A stretch of 64,000 bases of DNA, taken from assembly GCA_005223125.1 (NCBI GenBank), contig NJBH01000014.1, forward strand, positions 26,202 to 90,201, in the 5' to 3' direction. Source of the stretch: Promethearchaeota archaeon Loki_b32. Its GTDB lineage: Archaea; Asgardarchaeota; Lokiarchaeia; Sigyniarchaeales; SOKP01. The notes beneath the pieces are model-generated. The model was given only the letters and a program-made list of their open reading frames with translations, was not told where the DNA came from and did no database searches. Of this stretch, positions 49,513 to 52,124 are shown in pieces. Numbering within the stretch: the stretch's first letter is position 1; every line of letters begins with the position of its first letter. Position numbers and translations under genes: made by a program.

Positions 49513-51795
49513 ATGGTGAAGGTAAAGAATGCTGAAGAAATAGCTAAGCTCGTAACTACCGGATCATATGAGAAAAAGAGGTTGTTTACAATCACCGCGC
49601 ATCTATAGTGAGCCTTCCTTACTATAGCGTAAATTGACCATGGAAAAACAACCGCTACTGATTATCTGCTCCGCAGGGCGGGATTAATGCGACCTGAAGA
49701 TGCCGGCCAGCTCCAGATGACCGATTCAGATGACGAAGAACAGGAGCGAGGCATAACAATTTTCACAAGTGTAGTACTCCTTGCTTTTAATGACTCAAGA
49801 AAACTTGATGATGAAGAACCTTATATCTTACAGATAAATGATACTCCCGGGCATATAAGCTTTACAGGTGAAGTATCTCGAGCTCTCAGAGGGTCGGATG
49901 GAGCTATAATTCTAGTAGATGCACTTGAAGGCGTTATGACCCAGACCGAGACAAATATACGTTTATCAGTTGGTGAAGAACTCTGCAAGCCAGTTCTATT
50001 TATTAATAAAGTCGACCGACTTATTAGTGAGCTAAAGTTAAGTCCACAAGAGACTTTTGCTAAAATTGATAAAATTACAAGAGAAATAAATGATTTAATT
50101 AAAAAGATAAGACCTGAAGGATCAAATTGGAGTATTGATTTTGCTAAAAATTCCGTTGCGGTTGGCTCAGCTAAACATGGATGGGGTTTTACTTATGAAA
50201 TTTTAGTTGAAAAAGGTATGAAACCTCAAGATGTGTTCGCGAAATACAATGAGGGGGATATTCAATGGCTAAGGGACAATTTACCATTAGACGAACCGAT
50301 GTTAAGGATGGTCGTTGATCATCTACCAAATCCTATTGAGGCTTCCAAGTATAGAATTCCTCATATATGGGGAGGTGACCTAAACTCTGAATTAGGTCAA
50401 GCTCTACAGAAAAGTGACCCAAACGGACCACTGTACGGAATCATTTCGAAAATCTTTTTGGACCCCAAGAGAAATTATCAAGCAACTCTTATAGGTCGCG
50501 TTTTTTCTGGTACGTTTAATCAAACTGATTCAATTTATCTAATAAATAGTGGTTCGAGCAATCGAGTGAAGAGATTAGGCGTTATGGAAATTACGGACAT
50601 TTTAGACATTCCAAAGGTCCCAGCAGGAAATTTATTTGCAATATTTGGTTTTATTTGCCCTTCTGGAGAGACATTTATGTCGACCAATGATGTACCTAAA
50701 GATAAAGAAGAAAGGAAGAGATTACCTTCTTTCGAAAAAATTAATTATGCTTGTGAAGCTGTTGTTTCCAGAAGCATTAAACCAAAAGATGCGCATGAAA
50801 TCGATAAATTGGATGATGTTGTAAGCAAATGGATCAAAGCAGACCCAACAGCAGAATATCGGAGAGATGAAGAATCAGGAGAATTTATTCTTTCAGGAAT
50901 CGATCCGTTACAAATCGAAATTTTAGTGAAGAGGATAAACAATCAAGTTAATATTAATATTGGAGAACCAATAATCGTTTATAGAGAAAAAATTACTCAA
51001 AGGAGTCCTAACTATTATACCAAATCAGCAAATACTCATAATCGTATTTTATTACATATTGAACCTTTAGATGAAATAACTGAACGCTTAATTGAGACGG
51101 GTAAAGTGAATGATTTACAAAATGAGAAAGATCGGGCTCAAATACTAAGAGAGGAAGCAGGATGGGATGCAAAAGAAGCAAAGCGTATTGTTGATGTATA
51201 TCAGGGAAGTGCCCTTGTAAACGGGACTTCTGGATTACAGAGGTTTGATCGTGTTAAATCATATTTGAGTGCTGCTTTTAGGGATTGGTTAGGTAATTGT
51301 ATTATAGCAAAAGAACCTGCTGCTGGAATTAAAATAATTTTTACAGATATGACTATTCACGAGGACACACGTCATACGTCTTACGGACAGATTGCGGGAA
51401 TGGCTTTCTCTGCTATGTCCTTGGCCATGTTAGAAGCAGAACCACATCTCTTTGAGCCAATCCAGAAAATAGACATAAAATCACCACAAGGAACAGAAGG
51501 AAGTGTCACAGCTATCATATCAAAGCGACGAGGTCGAATTACAAATGTAATCCCAGAAGGAGAATATGTAAGAATACAAGGACAAATTCCAGCAGCAGAG
51601 ACAATAGGAATAGCAGACGATATTAGAGGAACTACTCAAGGAAGGGCATTCTTCGGGTATGAATTTAAAGGTTTCGAGAAAGTACCTCCGAGTATAGAGG
51701 AGGATCTTATAATGGAAATTCGAAAGCGTAAAAATATGCCATTAGAATTACCGAACCGAAAAAGTTGGGAGCGGTTTATTTACAAACGAACATAA
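49513..51795 (+). CDS. fusA: Elongation factor 2, split gene: exon 1 49513-49602, exon 2 49633-51795 (750 aa after joining)
   Basis: Exon 1 MVKVKNAEEIAKLVTTGSYEKKRLFTITAH joined to exon 2 IDHGKTTATDYLLRRAGLMRPED... restores G1 AHIDHGKTT. Also EQERGITI, DTPGH, NKVD and the domain IV/V motifs. Confidence 0.95.
49603..49632 (+). other. Putative 30-nt bulge-helix-bulge/loop (tRNA-endonuclease-type) intron in EF-2 mRNA
   Basis: CTATAGTGAGCCTTCCTTACTATAGCGTAA has three in-frame stops and an internal hairpin. A 4-bp central helix GCGC/GCGU is flanked by 3-nt AU^C and AA^A, which puts the cut sites at the exact exon junctions. Confidence 0.85.
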
Positions 51796-51998
51796 AACCT
51801 TTTTTTATTGTTATTTTTTTCATTAAAACTACATGTATTAATATTATATAGAGTTATATATAGCATCATTCTATTTACCTGGTTTTTAAAACTACATTAT
51901 CTCATATTATTAAGCACGTTGTATGGATATTAATGATGATTTTTAAAAGATTTAAAAGAAAGAAATAATAAAAAATTATATGTAAAAAACTATTTTTG

Positions 51999-52124
51999 GG
52001 CTTTGAGAAGGTACCTGCTTCTTTAGAAGAAAGTCTCATTATGGAAATTCGTAGAAGAAAGGGAATACCTGAAGAAATGCCTTCTGAAAAGAGTTGGGAG
52101 CGATTTATTTATGAACGGACCTAA
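51999..52124 (+). pseudogene. Orphan second copy of the EF-2 C-terminal 41 codons
   Basis: GFEKVPASLEESLIMEIRRRKGIPEEMPSEKSWERFIYERT* versus the EF-2 end GFEKVPPSIEEDLIMEIRKRKNMPLELPNRKSWERFIYKRT*; no upstream start codon. Confidence 0.9.

Follow-up and report, generated by a model that had tools for sequence, protein, structure and literature searches.

A candidate EndA-type mRNA intron in the elongation factor 2 gene of a Loki-type Asgard archaeon, with like inserts in other genes of the genome

The window, that is, the whole stretch of 64,000 nucleotides analysed here, comes from a Loki-type Asgard archaeon and carries a gene for elongation factor 2 (EF-2) whose G1 P-loop is split by a 30-nt insert. 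The insert starts with CU and ends with AA, and TAG, TGA and TAA all stand in frame within it. The main parts of the gene are as follows.

49513-49602, plus strand: exon 1 of aEF-2, 30 codons from the ATG, with Ala-His of G1 as last residues; conserved in all homologs
49603-49632, plus strand: putative EndA-type intron, 30 nt, with the three in-frame stops
49633-51795, plus strand: exon 2 of aEF-2, 720 codons and the stop; gene callers begin at 49687 and give 702 aa without G1
51358-51381, plus strand: domain IV loop HEDTRHTS, with the His kept, R-to-T and G-to-S, the signature of bona fide Loki aEF-2

When the 30 nt are removed, an ORF of 750 aa with AHIDHGKTT is obtained which resembles 77 uninterrupted homologs, and the product predicted without splicing is a peptide of 31 residues. 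Does the protein fix the junction? The 30-nt deletion was slid from -4 to +4, and among the nine registers AHIDHGK came back only at the one given above, while the slides of -3 and -4 lead to a stop. A preliminary description of this DNA had read the frame from the ATG at 49513 through the stops and had proposed that removal of these 30 nt restores AHIDHGKTT; its coordinates all check, and the register it chose is the sole restoring one. It had also expected gene callers to truncate such genes, and 702-aa entries are indeed found: databases hold EF-2 entries of 702 and 673 aa without G1 or switch I. A length of 702 aa does not always point to an intron, since L123 and L128, two of these entries, come from intact genes whose start codon is non-standard. 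An apparent ATT or ATA start is seen in the aEF-2 of L123, L128, L125, L126 and L097 (GTG in L083), and these genes too are shortened to 702 aa by gene callers. Just 3' of the gene in the window, at 51993-52124 on the plus strand, a short stretch repeats the C-terminus of EF-2 with 72% identity over 43 codons; it is probably the remnant of a duplication or replacement.

The minimum free energy fold around the insert has -22.5 kcal/mol (z -3.43), and one of 200 shuffles was equally good. The combination of four of four pairs in the central helix and nine of nine in the stem at this register appeared in none of 20000 shuffles of the insert. The predicted elements are listed here, with the place of this insert called site 1.

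49580-49653, plus strand: exon-exon clamp of 8 bp (49580-87 with 49646-53) which closes the fold; lineage-specific
49597-49600, plus strand: 5' exonic strand of the central helix, 4 bp, pairing probability 0.71-0.90
49601-49603, plus strand: bulge 1, 3 nt, predicted cut 49602/49603
49604-49626, plus strand: intron hairpin, 9-bp stem (49604-12 with 49618-26) and 5-nt loop; two-sided changes at 2 pairs among 7 sequences
49627-49630, plus strand: 3' intronic strand of the central helix, invariant in the 7 distinct site-1 sequences
49631-49633, plus strand: 3' bulge (AAA) within a 2x4 internal loop, the relaxed form, predicted cut 49632/49633

How should this fold be classed? All four pairs of the 4-bp central helix are present in all 7 distinct site-1 sequences, and the 3-nt bulge at 49601-03 is closed by the 9-bp stem inside the intron. 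The canonical hBHBh' form is not reached, with none of five strict outer pairs here and not one site-1 host that has a strict outer helix. Because the 3' 'bulge' forms part of a 2x4 internal loop and a strict outer helix is missing, the motif belongs to the relaxed HBh'/BHL form, in which the helix and one bulge are intact and the other bulge is opened to a loop; the EndA paralogs described below fit this form. Thus the helix, bulge, stem, clamp and AAA of the preliminary BHB/BHL proposal are reproduced by the minimum free energy fold, and the motif is not a canonical BHB. The clamp recurs with compensation in L008 and is not preserved in more distant hosts. EndA cuts between bulge positions 2 and 3 (PMC2738675). 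Applied in silico, a cut behind base 2 of each bulge (AU^C and AA^A) gives the only deletion that restores G1, so that the proposed coincidence of the enzyme's rule with the protein-defined junctions holds. A Group I, Group II or spliceosomal intron is ruled out by the length of 30 nt, the lack of GU-AG ends and an Rfam search in which the insert had no match. A sigma-70 promoter scan stayed at chance level, with a model that is unsuited to archaea.

Is the insert found in relatives? An identical insert is present in two other, independent assemblies, whose identity over the gene is 99.3% and 97.9%; an assembly error is thereby excluded. Among homologs from GTDB-type genomes (79 informative, mostly labelled Promethearchaeota), 77 are uninterrupted and the other 2 are interrupted by 30 nt at this very place, and a class-wide pattern search found the site-1 intron in 4 of 161 genomes, all of the genus of the window genome. 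Same-site inserts of 30 nt are present in the genomes G058, G059 and G105, to which metagenome contigs and a protein index add L095, L096, L099 and L127. Beyond the near-identical assemblies, six more divergent sequences carry the insert with compensatory changes in the stem, so that the structured inserts with covarying stems which the preliminary description had proposed to look for do exist. The stem is 90% paired over the 7 distinct site-1 sequences, as against 26-52% in slid controls. Two of its pairs are altered on both sides, with 4 cells showing two-sided changes, a result seen in 5 of 500 shuffles; since the 7 sequences are related, this covariation gives modest support, and the central helix adds none because it never varies at site 1. 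The intron differs between hosts at 3-8 of its 30 bases, while fourfold-degenerate sites of the same hosts differ at 45-68%. The Ala codon that forms the helix is GCG in every site-1 host, compared with 7 of the 77 intron-less homologs. The window genome has no second copy of the intron sequence. A search for the joined product of the window genome's exons gave no match among database proteins, the best being 27 of 30 within exon 1. Two contiguous metagenome junctions (L097 and L098, from a pattern allowing 0-30 nt) are 76-77% identical to the window and represent intron-less alleles of other lineages rather than cDNA. Several records (L033 and some DZ, QM and H3 records) are titled Nanopelagicaceae, Hodarchaeota, Thorarchaeota, Odinarchaeota or Hermodarchaeota, yet their EF-2 groups within the Loki clade with 86-94% identity; their titles are probably wrong or the contigs mis-binned.

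The EF-2 gene is interrupted in relatives at three further sites. At site 2, in switch I, a 30-nt insert with a stop is present in 19 of the 161 genomes of the class, distributed over three genera. Its inserts have a four-of-four helix of different sequence which pairs with its own exon flank, together with the same 3-nt bulge and 9-bp stem. The window has this site empty.

49726-49734, plus strand: empty site 2, in switch I between the Asp codons at 49731/49732, with the helix-forming bases as in the 19 carriers

G1 itself has two more sites, 1b and 1c, at distances of two and four codons on the 3' side of site 1. Their inserts measure 30, 31, 33 or 43 nt, and those of 31 and 43 nt are frameshifting. 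The carriers at these two sites are L121, L122, L124, L130 and L131 for the first and L125, L126 and L129 for the second; in the first group, a comparison of L130 with L131 shows covariation between the central helix and the Ile codon, and some copies have 2-3 of four pairs. At all three of these other sites the 3' ends of the inserts pair with their own, differing exon flank; the central helix is complete in all site-2 and site-1c cases, and only 2-3 of four pairs are formed in some site-1b inserts. Do inserts at separate sites share an origin? The hairpins of sites 1 and 2 have 14.9 of 23 positions in common, compared with 7.6 +/- 2.6 for shuffles that keep the structure, which suggests that they do. 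When site-1 occupancy is mapped onto the tree of EF-2 proteins, 5 changes are required, of which strong branches force 3, and the carriers are not monophyletic. A single origin without loss is rejected (AU p 1.8e-8), and the pattern is to be read either as repeated gain or transfer, or as one gain followed by many precise losses.

Inserts of this kind are not confined to EF-2. The preliminary description had proposed a scan of the genome for other genes with BHB-flanked interruptions, and at least seven other genes contain like inserts with a four-of-four helix whose removal restores conserved motifs:

C57:12438: uL11, 28 nt
C46:9968: RNase HII, 30 nt
C56:37059, minus strand: gyrB, 53 nt
C45:47178: cdhD, 33 nt
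C4:22685: psmA, 29 nt
C30:11080: E2, 31 nt
C27:38088, minus strand: histone, 30 nt, with a near-identical intact paralog 900 nt away at C27:37223 on the minus strand

Related inserts of 28, 29, 31, 43 and 53 nt shift the frame. The list is restricted to cases whose junction is set by a motif already known or by a paralog. An ab initio scan of the genome recovered the uL11 and histone cases; the ab initio scans gave 4945 candidates, which are mostly chance, and for this reason no genome-wide intron count is offered. Two other places, C36:188607 on the plus strand and C20:13225 on the minus strand, have 30-nt inserts with a four-of-four helix and a 9-bp stem, each between two protein pieces in the same frame, and would form putative junctions. 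In two relatives, matches to translational GTPases (G058, C173:12081-12470, and G145, C76:12645-13091; EF-1A-like and aIF5B-like by frame length) contain one internal stop each and possibly hold further introns. The tRNA genes of the window genome carry introns of about 30 nt of similar build. ARAGORN reported only 15 tRNA genes, several of them mis-called, in this 95% complete genome, which is consistent with heavily interrupted tRNA genes.

The enzymes named in the preliminary description, EndA and RtcB, are both encoded in the genome, RtcB once and EndA as two paralogs, in the regions C18:184510 and C2:78506. One paralog, EndA alpha, can be aligned with its A. pernix counterpart (E 2e-35), and the match takes in both the specific loop, Lys included, and the catalytic His, the residue which is mutated in 3ajv. 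The second paralog is without the catalytic His, as would fit a beta subunit. Asgard archaea are reported to have an (alpha-beta)2 EndA with this loop, and relaxed motifs are cut only by EndA enzymes which possess it, either (alpha-beta)2 or epsilon2 (PMC5829648). The ability to cut relaxed motifs matters here because site 1 is without a strict outer helix.

Could the gene in the window be a recent pseudogene, interrupted by a small MITE-like hairpin while an intact paralog does the job? There is one other EF-2-family gene in the genome, on C22, which is intact, and most relatives are without the insert, so that this explanation has something in its favour. Against it stands the identity of the two copies. 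In bona fide Loki aEF-2 the domain IV loop keeps its His, with R-to-T and G-to-S/Q, and in aEF-2p that loop is lost (Narrowe 2018, 10.1101/262600). Judged by this loop the gene in the window is bona fide aEF-2 and the C22 copy, which does not have the His loop, is aEF-2p, and the idea of a dispensable paralog as host is rejected by that signature. That aEF-2p is unable to translocate is a published inference and not an experiment. The TIGR00490 scores are 612-616 bits for exon 2 of the gene in the window and 662 bits for the C22 copy against an equivalog cut-off of 738, which no Loki copy tested passes. Dph1/2 had no match in the genome, and such genomes are reported to be without it (Narrowe 2018, 10.1101/262600). 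Selection, too, speaks strongly against a pseudogene. The dN/dS of exon 2 is 0.025-0.135 against intron-bearing relatives and 0.04 against intron-less ones; exon 1, with dN about 0.1 and dS at least 0.9, has few nonsynonymous and many synonymous changes. Purifying selection acts on both exons, in a set of hosts with nearly saturated synonymous sites. No full-length host has a further stop or frameshift across the 750 codons, the insert itself is conserved, and in G059 (98% complete) the one full EF-2-family match bears two stop-containing inserts, with no second copy. A pseudogene is thus extremely unlikely. The preliminary description had named an intact EF-2 elsewhere, combined with relaxed selection on this copy, as part of what would overturn its reading; the other copy is of the aEF-2p type and this one is constrained.

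Might the RNA remain uncut and the ribosome skip or read the insert, by programmed bypassing, stop readthrough or recoding? In favour of this, the 30 nt at site 1 keep the frame, their hairpin lies past the take-off region and a GCG codon stands at both ends of the insert. However, landing on the matching GCG would bring TAA as the next codon (the slide of -3), so that no usable take-off and landing pair is present; site 2 is without matching codons of this kind, and the related inserts listed above include lengths that shift the frame. Readthrough would have to pass three different stops and would leave ten extra residues in the P-loop, and the EndA geometry would go unexplained, which makes decoding of an uncut RNA very unlikely. 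It is still harder to believe that translation restarts at the Met at 49687 to give a 702-aa protein, or that the products of the two exons act in trans. Gene callers do predict the 702-aa ORF, but the protein would be without G1, which GTPases require for GTP binding, and codons 31-48, from the intron to that Met, are conserved in all hosts. Precise excision from the DNA of some cells in the population, or splicing by an enzyme other than EndA and RtcB, would suit the patchy presence among relatives and the relaxed motif. Against removal from DNA, all three near-identical assemblies carry the insert and its ends have no direct repeats; against another enzyme, the junctions obey the EndA cut rule at every site. 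We regard both as very improbable.

The best explanation, with a probability of about 0.9, is that the insert is an mRNA intron of relaxed form, spliced by EndA and RtcB, in a bona fide aEF-2 gene. For this we infer the steps from transcription through cleavage and ligation to translation of the joined RNA, as well as the route of spread, as follows. In the nascent RNA, the last codons of exon 1 would form the 4-bp helix with the 3' end of the intron, followed by the 3-nt bulge and the 9-bp hairpin. The (alpha-beta)2 EndA with the loop for relaxed motifs would cut after the second base of each bulge, at 49602/3 and 49632/3, and RtcB would ligate the exons, so that a 750-aa EF-2 with an intact P-loop could be made. 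The intron would be a member of a family of hairpins of about 30 nt which has entered both tRNA genes and protein genes of the lineage on repeated occasions, and it would be tolerated because the tRNA machinery removes it. The preliminary interpretation as an EndA-type intron in EF-2 mRNA stands, on sequence evidence, with its junctions, relatives, enzymes and truncated gene calls. It had also envisaged a link between elongation and tRNA-processing capacity resembling XBP1 splicing. A tolerated, spreading intron family fits better than such an EF-2-specific switch, because site 1 is occupied in 4 of 161 genomes and not monophyletic and because like inserts occur in unrelated genes; the patchy distribution argues against a regulatory, XBP1-like reading.

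Then why do introns persist in the most invariant motifs? One explanation may be that conservation of the codons preserves the helix and only a precise loss is viable. It may also be that introns are easiest to detect in such motifs. On a wider scale, we think it probable that non-spliceosomal mRNA splicing is routine and genome-wide in Loki-type Asgard archaea, where mobile EndA/RtcB introns of about 30 nt would keep invading conserved motifs in essential genes (four sites in EF-2, together with uL11, gyrB, proteasome, E2 and histone) and moving between sites and lineages. Core translation would then depend on the tRNA-splicing machinery, and the rate of splicing may, hypothetically, tune expression. 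If these RNAs are spliced, then an organism related to the eukaryotic host lineage routinely uses its tRNA machinery to splice mRNAs of essential genes. Life with many mRNA introns would have a prokaryotic precedent, and the spread and tolerance of introns could be tested directly. By itself the finding says nothing about the origins of the spliceosome. Asgard annotations are systematically truncated at such inserts, and phylogenomic markers and claims of gene absence are affected.

How does this compare with known systems? In XBP1/HAC1 a short mRNA intron is removed without the spliceosome under stress regulation, IRE1 cutting at two stem-loops, and XBP1 is ligated by RtcB in animals. The likeness to EF-2 lies in the short, non-spliceosomal mRNA intron and, for animals, in RtcB ligation; the difference lies in the cut, by IRE1 at two stem-loops there and, as predicted, by EndA at a bulge-helix motif here. 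The host gene agrees with the Asgard aEF-2 accompanied by aEF-2p of Narrowe 2018 (10.1101/262600) in the kept His, R-to-T, G-to-S, the lost Lys of the second loop, the presence of the paralog and the absence of a Dph1/2 match, and that paper reports no introns in these genes. The non-canonical tRNA introns of Asgard archaea and Thermoproteales share the motif, the enzyme type and repeated independent gains; the EF-2 host differs in being an mRNA, and its intron helix is therefore constrained by codons. The preprint on Asgard tRNA introns makes no mention of mRNA or cbf5, and no Asgard intron has yet been demonstrated as spliced (bioRxiv 10.64898/2026.10.13.758758). A literature search for Asgard mRNA introns, which covered few subscription journals, found no paper. 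The mechanism is known, and its use across many essential Asgard coding sequences is not in the literature searched. Haloferax HVO_1309 likewise has an mRNA as EndA substrate, but its BHB intron lies in the 5' UTR, outside the coding sequence, where no reading frame is at stake; beside it, cbf5 is described as the only case within a coding sequence (PMC7714728). Splicing of the BHB intron in cbf5 pre-mRNA of Crenarchaeota was shown by experiment (Watanabe 2002; Yokobori 2009, PMC2738675), and introns in other archaeal protein genes are predicted only (PMC2738675). The likeness to cbf5 is close, with a short intron in a catalytic motif, a relaxed BHB, cuts between bulge positions 2 and 3, a hetero-oligomeric EndA, and patchy gain and loss. 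The phylum and the gene are different, and splicing, experimentally shown there, is predicted here from sequence; cbf5 is the sole gene concerned in that system, whereas here EF-2 has four sites and no fewer than seven other genes of a single genome carry like inserts.
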